The notes under the pieces were generated by a model. The model made no database searches. It saw only the letters and a program-made list of their open reading frames with translations, and was not told the origin of the DNA. The translations under genes and the position numbers were made by a program. 64,000 nt of DNA, taken from Bacteroidales bacterium. GTDB lineage: Bacteria; Bacteroidota; Bacteroidia; Bacteroidales; JAAUTT01. The stretch is taken from positions 19,963 through 83,962 of the forward strand of contig JBBQTB010000013.1 in NCBI GenBank assembly GCA_038213375.1. The letters are read 5' to 3'. Positions 22,023 to 61,489 of the stretch are shown here, one piece after another (position 1 is the stretch's first letter; each line of letters starts with the position of its first letter).

Positions 22023-24377
22023 TCAAAGTTTATAAAACTGGTTATAGTTTGAAAGTATTTCAACAGTTAAATTTGATGAATGGAATTTTTGAAATAAATC
22101 ATTAAATGGAATTATAAATCCACAGCCCTCTTTATATCGATTGCACCCCCAGGCACTATTGCCTTTCAATAAGTTACCTTTTTTGCACACTGGACAAACA
22201 AGTATTGGATTTTCAATTACTGGTTTTGGCGTTTCAGGCTCTTTTACTTGCTCTATTTGTAATGAAACCGAAAAGTCGTCAAGCAACAGGATACTGCCGT
22301 TTACTTTCTGATTGTTTTTTAAGAAGCCTTTTATCAGAGGAGTTTTACTTGTCCTAATAAACGTCAGTAGTTGTTTATCAGTGAGTTTTTTGCCAAATTG
22401 TTCGAACCCTATTTTAAAGTTACAGCCGTCTTTAAAAGCATTACATCCGAAAGCAGTTTTGCCCTTTAGAATTATCCCTTTTTTGCATTTTGGACACATT
22501 AAAGATGAATTATTTGTAGCTTTAATTACTTTCTCTCCCTTTTCTTCTGTTTTTGTTACTATCTCCGTTTTTATTGATTTTGTTGTGTTTTCTTCCGAAA
22601 TAGTAATGGTTGCAAAGTTGTCTTTCTTAACCTCATTTACCAGATCGGTAACCATTTGTTTCATTTCGTCCATGAAAGTTTTAGGATTGTATTCGCCTTT
22701 TTCAATCTGACGTAGTTTTTTCTCCCACAACCCAGTTAATTCAACTGATTTAAGCAATTCGCTATGAATGGTTTTAATAAGCTCGACGCCCGTGATGGTC
22801 GGAACCAGGTTTTTTTTCTGACGAACAACATACGAACGCTTAAAAAGTGTTTCAATAATATTAGCCCGGGTCGACGGACGGCCAATACCATTTTCTTTCA
22901 TGAGGTCGCGTAACTCCGGGTCTTCCACTTGTTTTCCGGCTGTTTCCATGGCACGAAGCAAGGTAGCTTCGGTATAGTATTTGGGTGGCTGGGTTTGTTT
23001 TTCGAGCAAATCGGGATAATGAGGGCCTCTTTCGCCCTTGGTAAATATTGGCATTTCATAATCTTCCTCATCGGCTGCATCATTGTCCTTTTTGGGATAC
23101 AACACGCGCCAACCTTCTTCAAGAATCACCTTTCCGGTGGCGGAAAACTCATTTCCATCAACATCGCCAATAACGGTAGTATTTGACACGATACAATCGG
23201 GATAAAATGCGGCAATGAATTTACGGGCAATAATATCATAAACCTGCTTTTCCTGAATGGCCATTCCACCAGACGGAACAATACCTGTGGGGATAATAGC
23301 ATGGTGATCGGTTATTTTACTGTCGTCGAACACCTTTTTGTTTTTGCGGATTGGTTTATCAGTAATTTCCTTGGTGAAATTCAAATACGGTCTCATTTCC
23401 TGTAAAATACCTTTCACTTTGGGGTGCATATTGTGGGGCAAATAGGTAGTATCGACGCGTGGATACGTTACCAGCTTTTGTTCGTAAAGTTTTTGAATAA
23501 ATTTGAGAGTATCATCGGCCGTGAAATTGAACTTTTTATTGCATTCAACCTGCAACGAGGTAAGGTCGAACAGTGCCGGAGGCTGCTCATTTGCTTTCTT
23601 TTTCGATGATGAAATAATCTCAAACTCCTTGTTCTTTATGTTTTCGAGAAGTTTGAGAGCTTCCTTCTGATTGACAAATTTTTTAGTTGTTGAATTGAAT
23701 ATGACCTCACGAAACTTTGTTTTTATCTCCCAGTAGGTTTCCGGGATAAAATTCAGAATTTCATTATGCCTGTTAACAATGAGCGCAAGCGTTGGGGTTT
23801 GCACCCTACCAATGGATAATACTCCTTTTCCATTGGCATATTTAACGGTGTATAATCGACTGGCATTCATACCTAGCAACCAATCTCCAATGGCGCGGGC
23901 ATTACCGGCGGCATACAATAAATCGAATTCCTTACCATCTTTTAAATTGTTAAATCCTTCCTTTATGGCTTCATCGGTGAGGGATGAAATCCATAACCGT
24001 TTAACTGGTTTGTTACAACGCGCCAACGACAATACCCAGCGTTGAATCAATTCTCCTTCGATTCCGGCATCACCACAGTTTATAATTTCCGAGCTATTTT
24101 CTATTAATAATTTTAATGTATTAAATTGCTTTTGAACCCCCATGTTGTCAATTACTTTGATTTGGAAACGAGGCGGAATCATTGGCAGGATCGATAATCC
24201 CCAACGTTTCCATGCATCAGTATAGTCGTTGGGAGTTTTAAGAGAGCATAAATGTCCAAATGTCCAGCTAACATAATAGCCATTACCCTCAAAATAGCCA
24301 TCCCGACGGTCTCTGGCACCCAATATTCGGGCTATTTCCTTTCCAACACTAGGTTTTTCAGCTATGCAAAGTATCAA
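22023..24377 (-). CDS. topB: DNA topoisomerase III with C-terminal zinc-ribbon repeats
   Basis: 784 aa. It has the Toprim start MILCIAEKPSVGKEIA and the type IA core (GRVQTPTL). The C-terminus has CPKCKKG...CNAFKDGC and CPVCKKG...CNRYKEGC fingers. The stop is TGA. Confidence 0.9.
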   Translation of the reverse strand: MILCIAEKPSVGKEIARILGARDRRDGYFEGNGYYVSWTFGHLCSLKTPNDYTDAWKRWGLSILPMIPPRFQIKVIDNMGVQKQFNTLKLLIENSSEIINCGDAGIEGELIQRWVLSLARCNKPVKRLWISSLTDEAIKEGFNNLKDGKEFDLLYAAGNARAIGDWLLGMNASRLYTVKYANGKGVLSIGRVQTPTLALIVNRHNEILNFIPETYWEIKTKFREVIFNSTTKKFVNQKEALKLLENIKNKEFEIISSSKKKANEQPPALFDLTSLQVECNKKFNFTADDTLKFIQKLYEQKLVTYPRVDTTYLPHNMHPKVKGILQEMRPYLNFTKEITDKPIRKNKKVFDDSKITDHHAIIPTGIVPSGGMAIQEKQVYDIIARKFIAAFYPDCIVSNTTVIGDVDGNEFSATGKVILEEGWRVLYPKKDNDAADEEDYEMPIFTKGERGPHYPDLLEKQTQPPKYYTEATLLRAMETAGKQVEDPELRDLMKENGIGRPSTRANIIETLFKRSYVVRQKKNLVPTITGVELIKTIHSELLKSVELTGLWEKKLRQIEKGEYNPKTFMDEMKQMVTDLVNEVKKDNFATITISEENTTKSIKTEIVTKTEEKGEKVIKATNNSSLMCPKCKKGIILKGKTAFGCNAFKDGCNFKIGFEQFGKKLTDKQLLTFIRTSKTPLIKGFLKNNQKVNGSILLLDDFSVSLQIEQVKEPETPKPVIENPILVCPVCKKGNLLKGNSAWGCNRYKEGCGFIIPFNDLFQKFHSSNLTVEILSNYNQFYKL

Positions 24378-25954: not shown

Positions 25955-27598
25955 TTAAAGTATAAAATCTGTATTCAGAAAATTGGAATGTCTTCCAATT
26001 ACGATATTTTGAATGATATCCCTGCCGTTTTCATTTGCCTGAGCTGCTACCAGCGATCGTATTGAGAAACACCTCAAAGCATCGCTAATTGATAGTGTTG
26101 CTTCAGCAGAATCTTTACGTCCCGTGAAGGGAAGTGTATCAGGGCCCCGTTGACATTGACTATTTATATTAATACGGCTTACCTGATTTGTCAACCGGTC
26201 AATTAATCGCGCCATTGTGCTGGGGTCATTTCCAAATAGACTTAACTGTTGTCCATAATTCGAATTAGTTACGAAATCAAGAAATTCCTGCTCATCACTA
26301 TACGAGCAAACCGGGACAACCGGGCCAAATTGTTCAACCCCGTATAAGGCAGCCTCCGGGGTGATTGGGTAGACAATGGCAGGTCGAAACATTGTCTCAT
26401 AAAATGTTCCACCACCCTCATTCATAATGCTTGCTCCTTTTGCAATGGCATCATCTACATACCCTTTTAAGGTATTTGCTTTGTTAAATTCAGGTAATGG
26501 CGTAAGTTTTACTCCTTTTTCCCAAGGCATTCCCTGAGGCAGGGCATCAATAGCAGTAACCAACTTTTTCAAAAACTGATCGACAATTGATTTATGTACA
26601 AACATAATTTTTATACCAGTACATCGTTGTCCATTAAAGGTTAAGCTTCCCATTACACATTCTCGCACAGCAAGGTCAATATCGGCATCGGGCATTACAA
26701 GTGCCGGATTTTTGGCATCGAGCCCCAGAATACTGCGCATGCGATGTGGACGTGGATGTTGGAGCTTAAGAATGTCGGCAACGCGACTGGAACCAATAAA
26801 TGCAAGCACATCGATGAGTCCGCTTTTCATGATTGGCGTGATAATTTTAGCTCCATCACCATAAATGAAATTTACTACACCTGCAGGAAAACATTCCGCG
26901 AAAGCTTTCAACAAAGGTTGATGTAACAAAACCCCAAACTTGGGAGGTTTTACTACAAGTGTATTTCCCATTATTAAAGCGGGAATTAGTGTTGTGTATG
27001 TTTCATTTAATGGATAATTGAATGGACCCATGGATAGGCAAACCCCCAGAGGGGACCGTCGAACCTGGGCAATAACGCCATCGTCTAAGCTAAACCTGGA
27101 ATTGTTACGGTCAACGTCTTTGAGAGCCTCCATAGTTTTTATGATATATTCAACCGTACGGTCGAATTCTTTATAACTGTCGTCCAAGCTTTTGCCAATT
27201 TCCCACATCATCAGTTTTACTACCTCGTCGCGCACTAATCGCATCCGTACAACGAATTTTTCAACGGCTGTAATCCGTCCTTTCACACTCATGGTTGGCC
27301 AAATACCCCGTCCATTGTCCCAAGCGCGAACGGCGGCATGAAGTCCTTCCATCGCAGCTGCCTCATCCATCAATGGAACCTGACCAATAATCAATCGATT
27401 TAATTTTCCATTCTGGGTTACGCATATCGGGGAACTTACTTCCTCAAGTGGTCCATTCCATTTCTGTATTTTCCCATCAAGTAAAAAAATAGGTTCATAT
27501 TTTTTTCCCAATATTTTAACTTCCTGAGGTATACTTTCTAAAGTGGGGAATGAGTTCTTTAGTTTTTCTTTATAATTATTTACTGATTGTTCCGACAT
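25955..27598 (-). CDS. aldehyde dehydrogenase family protein (GapN-like), atypical general-base motif
   Basis: 547 aa from MSEQSVNNY. The catalytic Cys motif FNGQRCTG is present. The usual LELGGK is replaced by LGLDAK. Confidence 0.8.
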   Translation of the reverse strand: MSEQSVNNYKEKLKNSFPTLESIPQEVKILGKKYEPIFLLDGKIQKWNGPLEEVSSPICVTQNGKLNRLIIGQVPLMDEAAAMEGLHAAVRAWDNGRGIWPTMSVKGRITAVEKFVVRMRLVRDEVVKLMMWEIGKSLDDSYKEFDRTVEYIIKTMEALKDVDRNNSRFSLDDGVIAQVRRSPLGVCLSMGPFNYPLNETYTTLIPALIMGNTLVVKPPKFGVLLHQPLLKAFAECFPAGVVNFIYGDGAKIITPIMKSGLIDVLAFIGSSRVADILKLQHPRPHRMRSILGLDAKNPALVMPDADIDLAVRECVMGSLTFNGQRCTGIKIMFVHKSIVDQFLKKLVTAIDALPQGMPWEKGVKLTPLPEFNKANTLKGYVDDAIAKGASIMNEGGGTFYETMFRPAIVYPITPEAALYGVEQFGPVVPVCSYSDEQEFLDFVTNSNYGQQLSLFGNDPSTMARLIDRLTNQVSRININSQCQRGPDTLPFTGRKDSAEATLSISDALRCFSIRSLVAAQANENGRDIIQNIVIGRHSNFLNTDFIL

Positions 27599-27674
27599 GG
27601 TAATATTTTTTAAGAAATGAACTTCTAAGTTAATAAATTGCATGAAAAAGCCGTCCAATAGAGTAATTATTTGC

Positions 27675-28514
27675 TTAAATTAAACCAAATACGTCAATAA
27701 TTCTTCTTGTCTTCATGCGCATAGTATCATCCATAAACGAACACCCAGATTTTAATAATTCATTTAATGCGATAAGAACTGATAATCCATGATTAGCATA
27801 AAAATTACTAAGGGTATCTTCGGTAACATCAACCCATTTAAAATCTCTAGCATCATCGCCAGCCGATATTACCATATTTTGGAGTATTTGATACGATAAA
27901 TGAGTGTGAATGACAGTTGTTTCCATCCATGCATTATCCGTATTTCTTGGATCATCCACGTATCCCGTAAAAACTACTTTTTCGTATAACGGATTTGATA
28001 AATCACTCCCGTTTATCGATAGTTCTTCTGATAACTCTCTGTTCCTGGTTTCAAATGCCGTTTCATTCGAATCGCTCATACCTCCCGGAAAAGCGGTTTC
28101 GCCAGTATCGCTTCTGACAATGGTTAAAACCTTAAAAAAATTAGTTTCAGGATGGATAGCAGTTATTAAACCATCTACCGCAAAATTAGCGGCCCACTTA
28201 CCTAAAACGCCTCTGCCACATAACCCTGTTCTGCCAAAAGGATTTATCGGTATACCTTTATGGAATTTTACTTCACCTTCAAAGCTTATAAACGATCTAT
28301 TTACTTTTAGGATGTCTTGTGGGTCAGCCCAGGGTGTGTTTATATCTAAAACAATTGGTGCATTAAATTCAATAGGATTATATTCAGGAAATTCTGTTTG
28401 CCAGGAAACTTTATTATCCGGAACAAACATTCTGACAGGATAACTTGAATGTTTTTCAGTTCTCGATTTCTTATGCAATTTATAATCTTTGAATAGATTA
28501 CCGATATTTCCCAT
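27675..28514 (-). CDS. NUDT9-like Nudix hydrolase (putative ADP-ribose pyrophosphatase)
   Basis: 279 aa. The Nudix box is GGMSDSNETAFETRNRELSEELS. The NUDT9-type upstream segment is GRTGLCGRGVLGKWAANFAVDGLIT. Confidence 0.7.
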   Translation of the reverse strand: MGNIGNLFKDYKLHKKSRTEKHSSYPVRMFVPDNKVSWQTEFPEYNPIEFNAPIVLDINTPWADPQDILKVNRSFISFEGEVKFHKGIPINPFGRTGLCGRGVLGKWAANFAVDGLITAIHPETNFFKVLTIVRSDTGETAFPGGMSDSNETAFETRNRELSEELSINGSDLSNPLYEKVVFTGYVDDPRNTDNAWMETTVIHTHLSYQILQNMVISAGDDARDFKWVDVTEDTLSNFYANHGLSVLIALNELLKSGCSFMDDTMRMKTRRIIDVFGLI

Positions 28515-28548
28515 ATATTTACAAACCTAATTTATTTATAGTGTAAAA

Positions 28549-29475
28549 ATGATTGATAAAGTTATATATTCCACACAAAACACCGAGTATCTTTCTAGCG
28601 AAATTGCACAAATATTAAACATCCCATTTGGAAAAATAAACTGGGTTCAGTTCGAGGACGAAGAATTTGAAATTCAGATTTGTGACAGACTTGCCCCCAT
28701 AAACAAACATATTATTATCATCGGTTCTGCCGAAAACCTTAGATATTATGCCGATTTAGCTGATTTGGTAAGTACGTTTAAACAACAATACAAGGCAAAC
28801 ATTGTAGATGTTATTGTTCCTTATATTGGCTATTCTACTGCCGAGCGTTCAAAACCTAATTCCGGCATTTGTCCGAGGGGAATCTATAGGGTTCAGAGCT
28901 TGTTTGACACCATGCCACGGAAGATAACCTTTTTTGACCTGCATGCAGATGGTATCATGAATGTTGGGGGCCGTAATGGAATTTCCGATCATATCTATTC
29001 GGAACAACTTGTAATTCAAATTATCAATAAGATAAAGCAAGAAAATAAGGAACTTATCCTTGTATCGCCCGATGCCGGAAGAGGCAAATGGGTAAAAGCA
29101 CTTGCCTATAAAACAGAGCTTCCTCACGATATTATGAGCAAGGATCGATATGGGATTGATAAAGTTAAACTTGGCAATGCCTCTTCCAAAGTAAAGGATA
29201 AAGTTGCCATTATTTTCGATGATATGATTCGTTCCGGAAACACTGCAATAAAAGCAGCTGAGCAGATCCTTAATGCCGGGGCTAAAGAAGTAAGGATGAT
29301 TGCCTCACATGCTATTCTTCCCAAAACCCTTACAGTTGATGCAGAAAAGCGCATGCACGAATCGGTCATCTCAAAAATCTATGTCACTAACTCGCATTCC
29401 CGCTCACAAACTTTGACTTCTCCAAAATTCGAGGTGAGAAGTATAGCAGCTATATTGGCGAATTCAATTTCTTGA
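28549..29475 (+). CDS. ribose-phosphate pyrophosphokinase-like protein (divergent Prs paralogue)
   Basis: 308 aa with a two-PRTase-domain layout. DLHAD and the PRPP-loop segment IIFDDMIRSGNT are retained. The canonical PY.GYARQDR is PYIGYSTAERS and the KRR flexible loop is altered. The stop is TGA. Confidence 0.7.
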   Translation: MIDKVIYSTQNTEYLSSEIAQILNIPFGKINWVQFEDEEFEIQICDRLAPINKHIIIIGSAENLRYYADLADLVSTFKQQYKANIVDVIVPYIGYSTAERSKPNSGICPRGIYRVQSLFDTMPRKITFFDLHADGIMNVGGRNGISDHIYSEQLVIQIINKIKQENKELILVSPDAGRGKWVKALAYKTELPHDIMSKDRYGIDKVKLGNASSKVKDKVAIIFDDMIRSGNTAIKAAEQILNAGAKEVRMIASHAILPKTLTVDAEKRMHESVISKIYVTNSHSRSQTLTSPKFEVRSIAAILANSIS

Positions 29476-53690: not shown

Positions 53691-53707
53691 TGCGTAATTT
53701 TTACGCA
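53691..53707. promoter_or_regulatory. candidate NrtR operator 1
   Basis: Perfect palindrome TGCGTAA-TTT-TTACGCA, 61 nt upstream of the nrtR ATG. Confidence 0.5.
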
Positions 53708-53741
53708 ATAAAATTTGCAAATGAAATATTCATTATTATCT

Positions 53742-53760
53742 TTGCGTAACAATTACGCAA
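53742..53760. promoter_or_regulatory. candidate NrtR operator 2, overlapping a TAnnTTTG -7 box
   Basis: Perfect palindrome TTGCGTAA-CAA-TTACGCAA, 8 nt upstream of the nrtR ATG. The box TATCTTTG at 53737-53744 overlaps its left arm. Confidence 0.5.
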
Positions 53761-53767
53761 AGATATT

Positions 53768-54466
53768 ATGGAAACCAATAATTACTGTTACGAATATCCC
53801 CGACCATCCTTTACAACCGATTGTGTCATCTTCGGTTTCGATGCAGGTGAACTAAAACTTCTTCTTATTGAAAGAGGAATAGAACCTTTCAAAGGAAAAT
53901 GGGCCTTTCCGGGAGGTTTTTTGAATATGGATGAAAATTCCGATGAATGTGCTCGTAGGGAACTATTCGAGGAAACTGGAATAGAGAATGTCTTTATTGA
54001 GCAACTCTATACCTTTAGTGATGTAAACCGAGATCCAAGGGGAAGAGTTATCACTGTGGCATATTATGCACTCGTCAAGTTGTCCGATTTTAAAATTCAA
54101 GCTGGCGACGATGCCCAAAGTGCAAAATGGTTTCCAATCTCACAAATCCCTTCGCTAGCTTTTGACCACAACCTCATCTTGCGAATAGCATTAAACAGGG
54201 TTCGCGCCAAAATTCGCTATCAACCCATTGGTTTTGAATTACTCTCTGAGAAATTTACGTTGCCTGAACTTCAGAATCTCTACGAAACAATACTTGAAAA
54301 GCAACTCGACCGGAGAAATTTCAGAAAAAAAATTCTTGAAACCCAACTACTTATCGACCATCAGGAATCAGTAAAGGGAGTTCCTCACAAAGGTGCCAAA
54401 TATTTCAGTTTCGACAAGAATAAATATAAAGCATTATCGGAAAGAGGTTTCAATTTCGAAATATAA
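53768..54466 (+). CDS. nrtR: NrtR-type Nudix-related transcriptional regulator of NAD metabolism
   Basis: 232 aa. The N-terminal Nudix box is GGFLNMDENSDECARRELFEETGI. The C-terminal winged-helix segment is LPELQNLYETILEKQLDRRNFRKKIL. It heads a pncB-pncA-nadE operon. Confidence 0.8.
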   Translation: METNNYCYEYPRPSFTTDCVIFGFDAGELKLLLIERGIEPFKGKWAFPGGFLNMDENSDECARRELFEETGIENVFIEQLYTFSDVNRDPRGRVITVAYYALVKLSDFKIQAGDDAQSAKWFPISQIPSLAFDHNLILRIALNRVRAKIRYQPIGFELLSEKFTLPELQNLYETILEKQLDRRNFRKKILETQLLIDHQESVKGVPHKGAKYFSFDKNKYKALSERGFNFEI

Positions 54467-54496
54467 AGCAATGATTTAACTTTAAAAATAGAAAAA

Positions 54497-55651
54497 ATGA
54501 TTATTCGCGATTTTACCGACAACGATCTTTACAAGTTCACTACCATGAACGCTATTCAGAAAAAATTTCCTACGGCAGAAGTACTTTACAAGTTCATCAA
54601 CCGCGGAAAAACTGAGTTCCCTGTTGGTTTTGCAGAGGCCTTGCGTAACGAAGTAAATGCCATGCAAAATCTATGTCTTAGCAACGAAGCCGAAAAGTTT
54701 ATTCGAGATAGATGTTACTATTTCGAACCCGTATTTATTGATCTCTTAAAGGGTTACCGGTATAATCCGGAAGAAGTTCGAATTACCCAAACCGGCGGAA
54801 CACTTGAGGTAGATATTGTGGGGTTATGGTATCGCACCGTTCTTTGGGAAGTTCCACTCATGGCAATCATTTCTGAGCTTTATTTTACAATGACCAATCA
54901 AAAAGCCGACGATTACGAACCAAGGGCTATTGCAAAAGCAAAAGGATTTGCTGCTATTGGCGCAGAACTTTCAGAATTTGGAACACGTCGCCGTTTCTCC
55001 TTCGAAGTACAAAACCGTGTGGTGGAAATTTTGAAAGAACATGCTAGTAAATGTCTCAACGGAACCAGCAATGTTTATTTGGCAATGAAAAATAACCTTA
55101 CTCCTATGGGAACGCACCCTCACGAGTGGTTTATGTATCATGGCGCACATTATGGTTACCGCATGGCCAATGCCATTGGTCTTGAAAACTGGGTAGACGT
55201 TTATCAGGGAAGTCTGGGGATTGCATTAACCGACACATTTACAACTGACAATTTCTTTCACAGTTTCAATTCGAAATATGCAAAACTTTTCGACGGTGTG
55301 CGCTGGGATAGTGGTGACCCGCTTGAGTTTACCGACAAAACATTAAAACATTATGCAGCATGTAGGATAGACCCAAAAAGTAAAACCATTGTATACAGTG
55401 ACGCCCTGGATCTTGAAAAAGTGAAAGAAATAAAAAAATTTGTTAAAGGAAGAATTCACGATGTATATGGAATTGGAACATACCTCAGCAACGATGTGGG
55501 CGTTAAACCAATGAACATGGTTATCAAGCTTTTCGCAGCTAAGCCTTATGGCTACGATAATTTTTTCCAAACCGTGAAGCTCTCGGATGTAGACGGAAAG
55601 CATACAGGTGGACAGGATGAAATAGATATTTGTTTAAAAACGATAAGATAA
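54497..55651 (+). CDS. pncB: nicotinate phosphoribosyltransferase
   Basis: 384 aa with the N-terminal TDNDLYKFTTMNA and a typical PncB layout. Confidence 0.85.
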   Translation: MIIRDFTDNDLYKFTTMNAIQKKFPTAEVLYKFINRGKTEFPVGFAEALRNEVNAMQNLCLSNEAEKFIRDRCYYFEPVFIDLLKGYRYNPEEVRITQTGGTLEVDIVGLWYRTVLWEVPLMAIISELYFTMTNQKADDYEPRAIAKAKGFAAIGAELSEFGTRRRFSFEVQNRVVEILKEHASKCLNGTSNVYLAMKNNLTPMGTHPHEWFMYHGAHYGYRMANAIGLENWVDVYQGSLGIALTDTFTTDNFFHSFNSKYAKLFDGVRWDSGDPLEFTDKTLKHYAACRIDPKSKTIVYSDALDLEKVKEIKKFVKGRIHDVYGIGTYLSNDVGVKPMNMVIKLFAAKPYGYDNFFQTVKLSDVDGKHTGGQDEIDICLKTIR

Positions 55652-55677
55652 ACATTAATTCTTAATACCTCAACCAA

Positions 55678-56466
55678 ATGAACAATCAAAATGCAATTTT
55701 AATCATTGACGGTCAGTTCGATTTTTGTAATCCACAAGGTGCACTATTTGTAGCTGGTGCAGATGCAGATATGAAACGGTTATCTAATTGGATTAAATCC
55801 AATAAAAGCCAGATCGACCATATCTCAGTTACAATGGATAGCCATCCGGTGAATGATATTTCTCATCCCTCGTTCTGGCAAGATAAAAATGGAAAATTTC
55901 CAAATCCGTTTACTGCCATTTCTTCCCAAGAGATAAAAGATGGAAAATGGAGTCCACGGTTTTTCCCAAAGGAAGCTATCAATTATGTTGAAGCTTTAGA
56001 AAAACAAGGCGAATTTGGACATTTTATCTGGCCTTACCATTGTTTAATAGGTTCCAGAGGGGCTGCTTTGGACGATAACATCATGGAAGCCCTAATTGAA
56101 TGGACAAAGGATGGTAAGTTCTATCAGGTTGTGGCTAAAGGCACTTATCCACTTACCGAGCATTTCGGGATATTCAGGGCAAATGTCCCTGCGGCAAACA
56201 GACCTGAAACACAGCTTAATCAAGCATTGATCGATACCTTGGAAAAGTACCAGAATGTTTATCTGGTGGGCGAAGCAAAATCGCATTGTGTGGCCAATAG
56301 TCTAAAACAGGCTATGGAAGAAGCGCCTAACCTCGCTGGTAAGTTTGTAATTCTTGAAGATTGTATGTCAGATGTTACAGGTCTTAGCCATTTAGGAACA
56401 CCAATATATGCCCAAGCAAAAACGATGGGGATTAGATTCGCTAAATCTGTAGATATCACTCTTTAA
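55678..56466 (+). CDS. pncA: nicotinamidase (isochorismatase/cysteine hydrolase family)
   Basis: 262 aa with catalytic elements IDGQFDF (Asp) and GEAKSHCV (Cys). The NAD salvage context supports the call. Confidence 0.7.
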   Translation: MNNQNAILIIDGQFDFCNPQGALFVAGADADMKRLSNWIKSNKSQIDHISVTMDSHPVNDISHPSFWQDKNGKFPNPFTAISSQEIKDGKWSPRFFPKEAINYVEALEKQGEFGHFIWPYHCLIGSRGAALDDNIMEALIEWTKDGKFYQVVAKGTYPLTEHFGIFRANVPAANRPETQLNQALIDTLEKYQNVYLVGEAKSHCVANSLKQAMEEAPNLAGKFVILEDCMSDVTGLSHLGTPIYAQAKTMGIRFAKSVDITL

Positions 56467-56502
56467 GATTATTGAATTACAAATTATTAACCTAATAAAA
56501 TA

Positions 56503-57192
56503 ATGATTATGGACAATTTTAATCTTCCCGATTTTAATATAGATTTTGGAAACTTCGATCCACAGGAAATATCTTCTGACGAAACCATAAATGCTGTTTT
56601 GATTGTTGACGTATCACCTTCTGTTGATAGTTATGTTAATGATCTTAACAAAGCATTTAAAGAGTTTCTTGAAGAAATGCAAAGAAGCCATGTGGCAGAA
56701 AAACTAATGGTTTCCATTATTGAATTCAACGATACCATAAACGTGCGTACGGGGTTTCAACCTGTTAATTCCATTGATTTAGACAAGATATCATTCCAAC
56801 CATGTGGCAGCGGTACTGCATTGTACGATGCTGTTTTATCGGGGATTACCAATGCTGTTAATTACAGAACAAACCTTGAAAATTCGGGTGTAAACTGCCA
56901 GACCCTTATTTTTATAATTACCGATGGAGAAGACAACTCATCGCAAAATAGCGCAGGCAAAGTTAAAAGTGTATTATATAATATTGTGAAAGAGGAGAAA
57001 AACTCATTTAACTTTGAAACCATACTTTTTGGTGTTGGCAATGATGCTAATTTTGAAAATGCCCAAAAAGAAATGGGTATTAAACATTTAGCAAAAATTG
57101 GCAATTCCTCAAAAGAAATACGAAAAATGATAGGGTTTATTTCAGCATCTATTTCAAAAAGCTCCGGAGGTAATACTCAAGTAGTGTTTTAA
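56503..57192 (+). CDS. TerY-like von Willebrand factor A domain protein
   Basis: 229 aa. The MIDAS motif is DVSPS (D at 56608-56610), plus GTALYDAV and FIITDGEDN. Confidence 0.8.
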   Translation: MIMDNFNLPDFNIDFGNFDPQEISSDETINAVLIVDVSPSVDSYVNDLNKAFKEFLEEMQRSHVAEKLMVSIIEFNDTINVRTGFQPVNSIDLDKISFQPCGSGTALYDAVLSGITNAVNYRTNLENSGVNCQTLIFIITDGEDNSSQNSAGKVKSVLYNIVKEEKNSFNFETILFGVGNDANFENAQKEMGIKHLAKIGNSSKEIRKMIGFISASISKSSGGNTQVVF

Positions 57193-57208
57193 TTAATTTA
57201 TTTTATAT

Positions 57209-57931
57209 ATGATACATATTTCAACAGTTTCGAGACGAGGTTCGTCGCATCCCGATTGGAACGAGGACAACTTTTATTTCAAACTAACCGACAATTCAAT
57301 TATTGGAGGTGTATTTGATGGGTGCAGCTCCGCAAAGGATTCCTACTTTGCCTCGAAACTGTTTGCTAATATGTATAAAAAAACGATTTTTGATTTAAAT
57401 GAAGCAGACATAAACATAAAGAATTTTTCCTCTATTATAAATGTCTTTTTCAAAAATCTGAATGGAATAATAAAAACCATTGGCCTTGCCACTGACGAGA
57501 CGTTATCAACTGCTGTTCTTTTTGTTTATGAATTAAACAGCAATAACTTATTAGTTAAGTTTTTTGGTGATGGGGTAGCCTATGCAAACAATCAATACCT
57601 CGAAATTTTTAATAACGATGAAGAAAACAAACCTGATTATCTTGGATATTCTCTTGATGAAATCCTGACAGGCAAAAATTTCAGAACCTATTGGGATATG
57701 AAAAAATCGTTTGCCGCTAATACAAAAGACTTCAGCGTTTCGTCCGATGGGATATTTTCGTTTAAGAAAACAAACGAAAATGAACCCGACTTTTTATGTG
57801 AAAGCTATTTGGTACAAGATAATTTTTTATATAAAAACCCGGCATCCCTTAAAAGAAAGCTGAATATTTTAAGGAACAAAGGATATGAACATTACGATGA
57901 CGTCACAATAATTAGAGTCAAAACAGAGTAA
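57209..57931 (+). CDS. PP2C-family Ser/Thr protein phosphatase
   Basis: 240 aa with GGVFDGCSS, FFGDGVAY and the C-terminal YDDVTIIRV typical of PP2C metal-binding motifs. Confidence 0.7.
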   Translation: MIHISTVSRRGSSHPDWNEDNFYFKLTDNSIIGGVFDGCSSAKDSYFASKLFANMYKKTIFDLNEADINIKNFSSIINVFFKNLNGIIKTIGLATDETLSTAVLFVYELNSNNLLVKFFGDGVAYANNQYLEIFNNDEENKPDYLGYSLDEILTGKNFRTYWDMKKSFAANTKDFSVSSDGIFSFKKTNENEPDFLCESYLVQDNFLYKNPASLKRKLNILRNKGYEHYDDVTIIRVKTE

Positions 57932-57935
57932 TATT

Positions 57936-59600
57936 ATGAATAAAATAAAACTTTACGATTCCGGAGGTTCAACCAAGTTTGAGGTTGATATTTCAAAGGA
58001 AATTGATCGTGGAGGGGAAGGTTCTATCTTTCCACACCCTAATGATAAAAACCAGGTAATTAAGATATATCACGAAGGCATTGTCCATAACCTAACACAG
58101 CAAACCTGGATTTATCTTAGTCAGCTTGATAAAAGATTTGTTAAACCGTTGGAATTATTTTATAATGATACCGAAGCAATTATTGGTTTTAGCATGAATC
58201 TGTTGGATAACTCCTATTACAGGATTTCGCAAATTTTTACTAAGTCGCAATGTGCCAAATTGGGAATTAACGAAATAATAAAGAATAAAATTTCAAATGA
58301 ACTCATTTCTATAATAAAAGAAGCTCATAGCAAAAACATTGTGATTGGAGATTTTAATCCTTATAATATTTTTATTAACCCTCATGGAGATATACAAATT
58401 TTAGATGTTGATAGTTTTGAAACCCCAGCCTTAAAGCATTCAGGCCGTTTGCTTGACGATATTAGGGATCATTATTATTTGGGAAAGGTAAGCCGCCAAA
58501 GCGATTATTATGCTCTGGCAGTAAATGTTTTCAGGCTTTTAACGTATGTGCATCCTTACAAAGGAGTTCATAATATATGGAAACAGCTTGAAGAAAGAGC
58601 AATAAAAAGAATATCCGTACTTAGCAACGATACCGATTTAATAATTCCTGCATTTTACGAACCCATTGGTAGTAAAGCATTAGAAATGCAATTTAAACGG
58701 ATATTTGAAGATGGCGAAAGGTTTTTAATTCAGGTGGACCAAATAATCACAATCAAGAAACCACAAACTGTTATTCAAACCAACCGCACGAATATTATGG
58801 TGAAAGTAATTTCAGATAACGTAATTGATTTCTATTTCAATGAAACATTGGGGTATATAAAAACTGATACCATTTCTGAATTGTACGATTGCACTTTCAA
58901 AGGTAATCTGAGTTTAACCGGAAAAATAAACAATACAGACTATGATTCTCTATGGGTTGGAAATAAAAATATACTTCGGGTGAATGATAATCAACTTTAT
59001 TATCATCATGACCTTATAATCAACTTCAAAATACCTGAAAATTTCCGTGTTATTCAATTAGATCATATTCTGTTTGGTGTTGACTGGGAAAATATCTACC
59101 ATATTTATCCTGATAAAATAATTAATAAAACTATTTCATGGAGCAAGATACCTTCCTGGGGACGTGGGTTTAAATTTGAATTTAGCCCAATACAACTAAC
59201 TGGAGGAATTGCCCGAACACATTTTAGATATGGAGATGCCATAAACTCGGTGAAATTACCATTGAATGCTAAAAACCTGAATTTGAAAGGAAATACTGGT
59301 GTAATTACCTATTTCGAAGATGAAAAAATTAAACATAATTGGTTTTGCATAAATGGATTAAACCTTGTGATGTGCAAAGAAACCGAAGAAATATTTAGCT
59401 TTGCTGTTAAACAAACAACAGGAACTGCATTTGTTTTTGTTCCCAAGGATGGAAAAATTGAAATATTGCGAACACCTGATTTTAGCGAAGTGGATTCAAT
59501 TGAATTTGATGTATGCACTGCGCAGTCGCAAATTTTCTTAACCCGATCCGGTTTATTGCTTTTGGAGAATAAAATATTGTATTTAATTAATAGAAATTAA
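57936..59600 (+). CDS. Ser/Thr protein kinase-like protein with ~300-aa uncharacterised C-terminal domain
   Basis: 554 aa. The Gly loop is RGGEGSIF and the Lys is in VIKIY. The catalytic loop is IGDFNPYN (D at 58350-58352) and the DFG-equivalent is LDVDSF. Confidence 0.75.
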   Translation: MNKIKLYDSGGSTKFEVDISKEIDRGGEGSIFPHPNDKNQVIKIYHEGIVHNLTQQTWIYLSQLDKRFVKPLELFYNDTEAIIGFSMNLLDNSYYRISQIFTKSQCAKLGINEIIKNKISNELISIIKEAHSKNIVIGDFNPYNIFINPHGDIQILDVDSFETPALKHSGRLLDDIRDHYYLGKVSRQSDYYALAVNVFRLLTYVHPYKGVHNIWKQLEERAIKRISVLSNDTDLIIPAFYEPIGSKALEMQFKRIFEDGERFLIQVDQIITIKKPQTVIQTNRTNIMVKVISDNVIDFYFNETLGYIKTDTISELYDCTFKGNLSLTGKINNTDYDSLWVGNKNILRVNDNQLYYHHDLIINFKIPENFRVIQLDHILFGVDWENIYHIYPDKIINKTISWSKIPSWGRGFKFEFSPIQLTGGIARTHFRYGDAINSVKLPLNAKNLNLKGNTGVITYFEDEKIKHNWFCINGLNLVMCKETEEIFSFAVKQTTGTAFVFVPKDGKIEILRTPDFSEVDSIEFDVCTAQSQIFLTRSGLLLLENKILYLINRN

Positions 59601-59605
59601 TTTCC

Positions 59606-61489
59606 ATGATGTCTTCCACTAATTCTGTAAAAATAGCTGTTGCTCAATTAGAAGTTATTGCCGGACATCCGGATATAAATGCAAAAAAGGTTCTTCGGGA
59701 AATTGAAAATGCAAAAGATGCCGGAGACGATATCATCGTTTTCCCTGAAATGTCTGTTCCCGGTTATTTGCTTGGTGATGAGTGGGAAAACACCGCATTT
59801 GTAAATGATTGTTATTCATATAACGATGAAATAAAAAATGCAACTGATAACATTGTGGCTATCTGGGGAAATGTTGATTTGGATGAAACTATGAAAAATG
59901 AAGATGGCAGGATTAGAAAATACAACGCAGCCTTTGTTGCCCAAAACAAAAATTATCAAGGGGCTGGTCGTGTTCATAAAACTTTAATGCCAAAATATCG
60001 TGAATTTGACGATGAACGGCATTTTTATTCAGCCAGAAAAGAAGCTCAAGACAGGTATTTACATATTGAGGAAGTATTTGATCCTTTTGATGTTACTATA
60101 AAAGAAACAAGCCACAAACTTGGAGTTATCCTATGTGAGGACATGTGGAGTGACGATTACACCATAAACCCCATTAATATTCTTTTGAGAAAGGAGGCCG
60201 GATTAATTGTAAACCTTTCATGCTCTCCCTGGACTTGGCGAAAGAATAATAAACGGCATTCTGTAGTGCGAAACAGGATTCAAAACCAACCAGTTTATTT
60301 TATCTATGCCAATAATATCGGGATTCAAAATAATGGTAAAAACATTTTTCTTTTCGATGGCAATTCTACCATTTATAATCCTGATGGCTCACTCCAAAAA
60401 GTAGCAAAAGATTATACTGAAGAAACAATCAGGGCAACCATATTTGGTGAAAAAATAGAGATAATGCCCAATCCCGATGTAAGTGACGAAAGGGATAAGG
60501 AAGAACTGTATAAAGGTCTCGTGTACGGGATTAGGAAATTTTTTGACATTTTTCCAAACCGTCGTGTTGTATTAGGACTAAGTGGTGGAATAGATTCAGC
60601 TTTGAGCGCAGTGTTACTTGCCGAGGCGTTAGGTTCTGAGAATGTTTACGCCATTAATATGCCCTCTCAGTTTAATTCCGAAACTACCAAAAGCGCTGCA
60701 AAAATTCTGGCACAAAATCTTGGCATTCATTACACCACTATACCCATTCAGGCTTCATATGAGAATACAATCATGGATTTGGAATCAGCCATATTTACCC
60801 GATTAGATGGTTCGAATGCAACCACAGAGTTAAAACTTTCAGGTATTAATAAAGAAAATATCCAGGCGAGAGATCGGGGCTCCCGCCTGCTAGCAGGAGT
60901 AGCTTCCATTTTAGGGGCTGTATTTGTAAACAATGGCAATAAAACCGAAACTGCTTTTGGCTATGCGACTCTGTATGGAGATGTGAATGGGGCTCTTGCT
61001 CCCATTGCCGACCTATATAAAATGGAGGTTTATGAATTGGCTGCATTTATAAACAGTAAAAAAAATGTTATACCGGCCACCATCTTTAATATTCCGGCTT
61101 CAGCCGAATTGAGCGCCGATCAGAATATAAACGAAGGAAAAGGTGACCCCATTTATTATCCATACCATGACAAATTGGTGCGTGCATTTGTCGAGTTCCG
61201 CCTCGACCCGGAAGATATCCTTCGCTATTACACCGAAGGTACATTGGGGCAAGTTCTACATTGCGACCAAGCAATTATTGACAATTATTTTAAAGATAAC
61301 GCATCCTTTATCGCCGACCTAGAACACAAGTGGAAACTCTACAAACTTAATTACTTCAAACGTATCCAGGCACCTCCGATTATTGCAGTTAGCAAACGTG
61401 CTTTTGGCTTCGATTTACGCGAATCGCAAAACGGGGTGTATTTTACCAGGGGATATCTACAATTGAAAAACAAAATCTTGCACAAATAA
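59606..61489 (+). CDS. nadE: glutamine-dependent NAD+ synthetase (nitrilase + synthetase domains)
   Basis: 627 aa. The CN-hydrolase triad context is FPEMSVPGY and LCEDMW. The PP-loop is GLSGGIDSA. Confidence 0.9.
   Translation: MMSSTNSVKIAVAQLEVIAGHPDINAKKVLREIENAKDAGDDIIVFPEMSVPGYLLGDEWENTAFVNDCYSYNDEIKNATDNIVAIWGNVDLDETMKNEDGRIRKYNAAFVAQNKNYQGAGRVHKTLMPKYREFDDERHFYSARKEAQDRYLHIEEVFDPFDVTIKETSHKLGVILCEDMWSDDYTINPINILLRKEAGLIVNLSCSPWTWRKNNKRHSVVRNRIQNQPVYFIYANNIGIQNNGKNIFLFDGNSTIYNPDGSLQKVAKDYTEETIRATIFGEKIEIMPNPDVSDERDKEELYKGLVYGIRKFFDIFPNRRVVLGLSGGIDSALSAVLLAEALGSENVYAINMPSQFNSETTKSAAKILAQNLGIHYTTIPIQASYENTIMDLESAIFTRLDGSNATTELKLSGINKENIQARDRGSRLLAGVASILGAVFVNNGNKTETAFGYATLYGDVNGALAPIADLYKMEVYELAAFINSKKNVIPATIFNIPASAELSADQNINEGKGDPIYYPYHDKLVRAFVEFRLDPEDILRYYTEGTLGQVLHCDQAIIDNYFKDNASFIADLEHKWKLYKLNYFKRIQAPPIIAVSKRAFGFDLRESQNGVYFTRGYLQLKNKILHK

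Follow-up and report, generated by a model that had tools for sequence, protein, structure and literature searches.

A divergent gene pair for a NUDT9-type Nudix protein and an unusual PRPP synthetase paralog as a candidate ADP-ribose salvage branch of NAD recycling in a Bacteroidales bacterium

The subject of this work is a divergent gene pair on one contig (C13) of a 4.9-Mb, Bacteroidales-type genome (G000), which we analyzed within a stretch of 64,000 nucleotides, referred to here as the window. A gene for a Nudix protein and a gene resembling prs, which codes for phosphoribosyl pyrophosphate (PRPP) synthetase, are read in opposite directions from a spacer of 34 nt (28515–28548), and an aldehyde dehydrogenase (ALDH) gene, located on the same strand as the Nudix gene, begins 76 nt past its stop (Table 1). 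The open reading frame coordinates confirm the distance of 34 nt between the two divergent starts that had been given in an earlier note on this DNA. The ALDH frame is open over 25955–27658 (−), and its true start can with near certainty be placed at Met21 (27598), which gives the protein the length of its homologues. An operon composed of nrtR, pncB, pncA and nadE lies 25 kb from the pair; its pncB (54497–55651) is the sole NAPRTase-family gene of the genome, and in sister genomes the Prs-like gene directly adjoins this operon.

Table 1. Features of the locus and of the nrtR operon, in window coordinates
Feature	Position	Strand	Length	Assignment or basis
Prs-like gene	28549–29475	+	308 aa	Prs paralog of the STxER class (see text), two-domain PRPP-synthetase fold
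Nudix gene	27675–28514	−	279 aa	predicted NUDT9-type ADP-ribose pyrophosphatase (Pfam NUDIX)
ALDH gene	25955–27598	−	547 aa from Met21	GapN-related aldehyde dehydrogenase (Pfam Aldedh, 300 bits)
−7-like box TATATTTA	28514–28521	+		for the Prs-like gene
−7-like box TAGGTTTG	28529–28522	−		exact TAnnTTTG match
NrtR operators (53691–53707, 53743–53759) and nrtR-pncB-pncA-like-(vWA/PP2C/kinase)-nadE operon	53691–61489	+		Pfam, palindrome search

The Nudix protein matches human NUDT9 (1Q33) over residues 14–246 with E = 8e-40, and the likeness to NUDT9 that had been proposed for it is thus a strong one. The homology spans the N-terminal as well as the Nudix domain, the Nudix box R-E-x2-E-E is intact in the alignment to 1Q33, and both the catalytic box and the NUDT9-specific N-terminal domain are present. 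The precomputed annotation of its homologues lists PF00293 together with PF25969 under the name ADP-ribose pyrophosphatase. We accept the gene product as a predicted NUDT9-type ADP-ribose pyrophosphatase which, in contrast to the human protein, is bacterial and stand-alone.

The Prs-like protein passes the TIGR01251 family model with 147–150.5 bits (cut-off 113) and passes none of the equivalog models. It is not the product of the housekeeping gene, as the earlier note had suspected: A canonical prs sits on another contig (C43) and scores 343.9 bits with the same model. The AlphaFold 2 model of the Prs-like protein (mean predicted local distance difference test score 93.5) aligns in Foldseek with PRPS1, PRPS2 and bacterial Prs at template modeling (TM) scores of 0.83–0.88, and the protein thus has its fold in common with the class I PRPP synthases (human PRPS1, B. 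subtilis, E. coli), to which it is 23–26% identical. Also shared with this class are the flag region F-x-D-x-E, His132, the pyrophosphate (PP) loop residue Asp175, the K-x-R residues Lys198 and Arg200, and the pair Asp224/Asp225; the alignment confirms that D130-L-H-A133 and DDMIRSGNT (224–232) are kept. Three motifs differ: S96-T-A-E-R-S101 takes the place of canonical ARQDRK, just as had been read from the letters, and replaces the Arg-Gln of the flexible loop by Thr-Ala; DxGG of the PP loop becomes DxGR; and DDMIDT of the ribose-5-phosphate loop becomes DDMIRS, in which an arginine stands for the aspartate. The supposed alteration of the catalytic KRR loop was correct insofar as the loop is changed to S-K198-D-R200, but the catalytic lysine and arginine are both retained, and human PRPS1 reads K-E-R at this position. 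Moreover, the allosteric tail S-x-S-x-[LF]-F is absent, with the protein ending about 14 residues before canonical Prs, while the terminal helix at 300–307 is still found in the model. The roles of these residues in the binding of ATP and of allosteric ADP follow the PRPS literature, in part PMC13586617. Having lost both the allosteric tail and, in the regulatory flexible loop, the Arg-Gln pair, the paralog would probably escape the feedback by ADP and GDP that throttles the housekeeping enzyme.

Taken together, we consider it moderately probable that the divergent pair constitutes an ADP-ribose salvage branch of nicotinamide adenine dinucleotide (NAD) recycling, in which ADP-ribose is converted via ribose-5-phosphate to PRPP for PncB-dependent salvage. 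NAD-consuming enzymes release free ADP-ribose, which in the first step the Nudix enzyme, whose homology is strong, would split into AMP and ribose-5-phosphate. In the second step, the Prs paralog would pyrophosphorylate ribose-5-phosphate to yield PRPP, which in the third step might feed the nicotinate phosphoribosyltransferase encoded by pncB in the nrtR-pncB-pncA-nadE operon, a likely consumer of PRPP. The pairing with NUDT9 thereby suggests a simple route of three enzymes from ADP-ribose to nicotinic acid mononucleotide. The genome further encodes NadA for de novo NAD synthesis and one sirtuin, a source of ADP-ribose derivatives. The concept that a Nudix enzyme converts ADP-ribose into ribose phosphate, from which PRPP is formed, was put forward by Rodionov et al. 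2008 (PMC2330246), who also described a second prs paralog under the control of NrtR, gave its significance as "yet to be elucidated" and listed prs-nadV operons in Shewanella oneidensis, Acinetobacter ADP1 and Cytophaga hutchinsonii. As in our locus, the second prs of these operons is an extra copy beside the housekeeping gene and is assigned to NAD salvage by context; the two systems differ in the partner, which is NadV there and a NUDT9-type hydrolase here, and in that prs-nadV is linked to NrtR, whereas in our genome salvage proceeds via PncA and PncB and the pair carries no NrtR operator.

Judged from its sequence, the Prs-like protein falls into a widespread and clearly distinct class of Prs paralogs, which we name STxER here and which carries YST[AM]ER for ARQDR, DxGR for DxGG and DDMIR for DDMID and lacks the allosteric tail. 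An exhaustive search of 1.84 billion representatives returned only 11 clusters at E < 1e-30, and many remoter matches share the signature. In a quick maximum-likelihood tree of 54 sequences, the class is split from canonical Prs with a support of 99 in the Shimodaira–Hasegawa-like approximate likelihood ratio test (SH-aLRT) and a branch of 0.91; the tree reflects a quick search only, and the long branch of the phage enzyme Adps is a caveat to it. The residues K198, H132, D175, D224 and D225 are the same in all of 33 class members, and R200 is the same in nearly all; likewise, Thr97 is invariant, as is Arg228 of the phosphate-binding loop, and Arg178 of the PP loop is nearly invariant. No entry of the PDB belongs to the class, the best reaching 222 bits against the class profile compared with at least 300 for members; Thermus thermophilus PRPS II, which came up as a structural match, scores 186 bits and was rejected as a member. 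Additionally, two relatives of our Prs paralog, P0282 (460 aa) and P0283 (513 aa), carry a further N-terminal copy of Pribosyltran_N.

The class contains two groups. Group A comprises the PrsL proteins of nrtR-NamPT-NadR-like-PrsL-ARH operons and a Prs-nicotinamidase fusion. The Namat motif GSxxxxxxTRD (PMC12774641) is present in the Felixounavirus Namat used as a control and absent from the NamPT partners of group A, so that these operons look PRPP-based. Such operons were seen on the metagenome contigs L219, L220, L221 and L223, where nrtR, a NamPT-like gene and a NadR-like gene (cytidylyltransferase plus AAA_28) accompany the STxER prs, and a convergent gene for an ADP-ribosylglycohydrolase (ARH) lies downstream. 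The natural fusion protein P0302 (578 aa), from a metagenome-assembled genome (MAG) of the Bdellovibrionota, unites an STxER Prs domain with a PncA nicotinamidase, the latter scoring above the cut-off of NF008623. Group B is formed by a small subclade with our Prs-like protein and a large Desulfobulbia-type branch. Across the class, ties to NAD salvage and ADP-ribose recur in the form of NUDT9, NADAR, ARH, NamPT, the PncA fusion and NrtR operons. We infer that the prs-nadV paralogs of the three species named by Rodionov et al. fall into the STxER class as well, as their operons look like the metagenomic nrtR-nampt-nadR-like ones. The class is recognizable from its sequence alone, and all that has been known of it since 2008 is a "second prs" of NAD operons that lacks an explanation; YSTxER, DxGR, DDMIR and the missing tail provide a signature that separates them from housekeeping prs in annotation.

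The Prs-like gene is accessory: Of 12 sister genomes of the genus, 5 carry it, it is absent from 48 other families of the order, and it was not found among 400 further genomes sampled from the phylum, just as the Nudix gene was not found among 150 further genomes sampled from the taxonomic class. This patchiness, which extends to all three genes of the locus, would suit an adjacency devoid of pathway meaning, in which the Prs paralog is a general isozyme under different regulation and the Nudix and ALDH genes are mere accessory neighbors in a variable region; the housekeeping neighbors of the Desulfobulbia-type branch point the same way. We nevertheless rate such an adjacency as fairly unlikely, on account of three observations. 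First, three sister genomes have the divergent pair as well, and the two genes are thus kept as neighbors in relatives, a point on which the earlier note had proposed a check: The pair of G003 is 98% identical, that of G008 is 81% identical with a spacer of 176 nt, and in G001, where nadE lies 3 kb downstream, two contigs overlap inside the spacer. Orthologues of 81–98% identity in four genomes have preserved the arrangement. Second, the place of the lost Nudix gene has been taken by another ADP-ribose-related gene. In G004 and G009 a NADAR gene is the divergent neighbor of the Prs-like gene, which in turn abuts nadE-pncA-pncB-nrtR, and a stretch of about 12 nt that agrees with the first codons of the Nudix gene persists upstream of the Prs-like gene; a NUDT9-like gene was not found in these two genomes, nor was a NADAR gene in G000, G003 and G008. 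This exchange of NADAR for Nudix at the same spot is, as an inference from context, the strongest contextual argument for a functional coupling. Third, independent branches of the class are likewise set in operons for NAD salvage or joined to PncA. As a separate observation, the NADAR protein beside the Prs paralog (L007:489-1421, L008:6936-7877) has 313 aa, of which the C-terminal ~125 residues lie outside the NADAR domain. A second divergent pair of a Nudix gene and a phosphoribosyltransferase (PRTase) gene, on contig C2, proved to be a generic Nudix gene beside pyrE and was dismissed as irrelevant.

Several results weigh against the salvage route. In the Desulfobulbia-type branch, the largest one sampled, the gene is flanked by leuB and asd, and NAD genes are missing from its surroundings; besides leuB and asd, a sigma-54 activator is among its usual neighbors, and the branch occurs in 29 of the 41 genomes sampled from the class to which the Desulfobulbaceae MAG G061 belongs, always alongside canonical Prs. 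In all 33 class-carrying genomes examined (G000, G004, G009, a Marivirga MAG and the 29 genomes just mentioned) canonical Prs is co-present, and that the paralog is never the sole Prs fits a function that is out of reach for the canonical enzyme, or the converse. Furthermore, R96 and Q97 of human PRPS1 correspond in the alignment to Thr97 and Ala/Met98 of the class, and the ribose-5-phosphate loop has an arginine (R228) where canonical Prs has an aspartate. As a consequence of these replacements of ATP-binding residues and of the aspartate, the use of the ordinary substrates is not assured. To these points are added the lack of an NrtR operator at the pair, sites with up to two mismatches being no commoner than the control, and the fact that no biochemical study of any class member was found in the open-access literature. 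The arrangement leuB-prsL-asd, or the one with the sigma-54 activator, was also recorded in the genomes G462–G501 and, besides L149, L157, L164 and L189, at about 30 further loci from metagenomes.

The unusual loops raise the question of whether the STxER protein might be a neofunctionalized Prs that employs another acceptor, such as ADP-ribose or a different ribosyl compound, or another donor. A precedent for a PRPS fold that accepts ADP-ribose is Adps of the NARP1 system (PMC13586617), and the earlier note had hinted at an ADP-ribose-directed kinase of this kind. Adps resembles the Prs-like protein in its PRPS fold, in the loss of the allosteric C-terminal motif and in its context of NAD reconstitution. 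Adps is further marked by the loss of the C-terminal alpha11–alpha12 module, and in this respect the Prs-like protein combines an early end, about 14 residues before canonical Prs, with a terminal helix at 300–307. Yet our comparison led us to reject an identity with Adps: In tblastn, the match to Felixounavirus Adps is confined to residues 171–282 (E about 1e-7), and in the quick tree Adps sits on a branch of 5.1 units outside both the STxER clade (SH-aLRT 99) and canonical Prs. Where Adps keeps A-R-x-D-R and the DDICD loop (N-A-R-Y-D-R and DDICDGGRT in the Felixounavirus control), the Prs-like protein has S-T-A-E-R and DDMIRSGNT, and both the equivalent of Arg87 and the loop DDIC-D-x-[AG]-[AG] are missing from it. 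Moreover, Adps pairs with Namat, which is found in the immediate vicinity of 97% of Adps genes (Osterman et al., bioRxiv 10.1101/2024.02.11.579819), whereas neither a Namat nor a NamPT gene was found in our genome or beside the locus. An Adps is also unlikely because the adjacent ADP-ribose pyrophosphatase would destroy its substrate. NARP3 (PnuC/NadR) was considered as well and is unrelated. The other half of the earlier suggestion holds: With a canonical prs elsewhere in the genome and NAD and ADP-ribose contexts around the paralog, the locus looks like a module of ADP-ribose recycling or NAD metabolism and not of housekeeping PRPP synthesis.

A neofunctionalization independent of Adps has to be weighed separately. 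It would agree with the invariance of Thr97 and Arg228 and the near-invariance of Arg178, with the constant presence of canonical Prs, with the proximity of members to the ADP-ribose-handling enzymes NUDT9, NADAR and ARH, and with the low scores of all solved structures against the class profile. The position outside the Adps branch, the loss of the Arg87 equivalent, DDMIR in place of DDICD and the lack of Namat and NamPT speak against it, as does the adjoining pyrophosphatase, which would compete for ADP-ribose; in addition, the NamPT partners of the sister branch are of the PRPP-using type. We regard a neofunctionalized enzyme as unlikely. If it were real, it would represent the second independent neofunctionalization of the PRPP-synthetase fold after Adps, one that is widespread in bacteria, the extra arginines in the PP and phosphate loops would bind additional phosphates, and a step of bacterial ADP-ribose and NAD metabolism that has not been described would be at hand. 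The discovery of Adps has made clear that proteins annotated as Prs can conceal new chemistry.

NAD depletion and ADP-ribose signaling are central to phage defense and stress physiology. A conflict element, in which the Nudix protein degrades ADP-ribose immune signals or toxic ADP-ribose from NADase defense and the Prs paralog rebuilds NAD after abortive infection, would accord with the accessory and patchy distribution of the genes, with a match of the Prs-like protein to phrog_619 of PHROG (4.7e-23) and with the description of NADAR, Nudix and ARH domains as countermeasures to ADP-ribose signals (PMC9503650). We deem it very improbable, and membership in a defense system was rejected, given that PADLOC yielded only marginal PRTase matches and none of substance, that phage or defense genes were not identified among the annotated neighbors, and that the Prs-like protein has no close phage homologues, the best being 28% identical.

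TAnnTTTG is the consensus of the −7 element of Bacteroidota, and the box TATATTTA on the plus strand resembles this element in its letters; in each of the seven genomes, a TATATTTA/G box precedes the Prs-like start by 20–35 nt, whichever gene is the neighbor. The minus-strand box TAGGTTTG, an exact match that abuts the former, is weak evidence, because TAnnTTTG is not enriched across the window. The two putative promoters would lie back to back, with the upstream elements of each inside the coding region of the other gene, and the overlap of promoters that had been deduced from the short spacer agrees with these abutting boxes, which are motif matches only. Control of the pair by NrtR was rejected, as no operator was found: The palindrome TGCGTAA-N3-TTACGCA has only two sites in the 4.9-Mb genome, both of them upstream of nrtR, and consequently the NrtR regulon appears to consist of a single operon.

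The ALDH next to the Nudix gene has its best PDB matches among GapN structures (1e-57). In common with GapN (ALDH11; 3PRL, 1EUH) it has a cysteine preceded by arginine (QRC) and the C-terminal motif QRGPD..PF.G.K.S, and it differs from GapN by N- and C-terminal extensions and by its score of 173 against an equivalog cut-off of 780. The motifs GQRCTG and LGLDAK were read correctly in the earlier note, the latter aligning without gaps with LELGGK of 3PRL: The nucleophile (Cys302 of GapN) is kept, the general base (Glu268 of GapN) is replaced by glycine, and an aspartate follows two positions later. Since 120 of 120 close homologues carry an unchanged L-G-L-D-A-K, the motif represents a family trait and not a lesion. 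One may speculate that the general base has moved to this aspartate, or that the acyl acceptor is not water. The 120 best matches of the 547-aa family share at least 68% identity, and their named sources include MAGs of Bacteroidota, Pirellulales and Verrucomicrobia; the variant family is widespread and hence not specific to the Nudix/Prs module. Within the genus, G000 and G003 have the ALDH gene behind the Nudix gene, with which it may be co-transcribed. In G006 (L105), a gene for a paralog of the NrtR family, which shares 35% identity with the NrtR of the window, is located at 3352–4122 (−) directly upstream of the ALDH orthologue at 1498–3138 (−), which hints at regulation of the latter by a Nudix-type regulator; a recurrent link of this ALDH to Nudix-fold sensors of ADP-ribose or pentoses is only weakly indicated.

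The flanking genes are unrelated to the pair and code for a topoisomerase, a DUF6629 protein, a TMEM175-like channel and a TonB receptor. The topoisomerase (22023–24377, −), which contains Toprim and Topoisom_bac domains, might be the sign of a region that is variable or was once mobile. The guanine-cytosine content amounts to 0.40 at 26–28 kb, compared with 0.34–0.37 around it.

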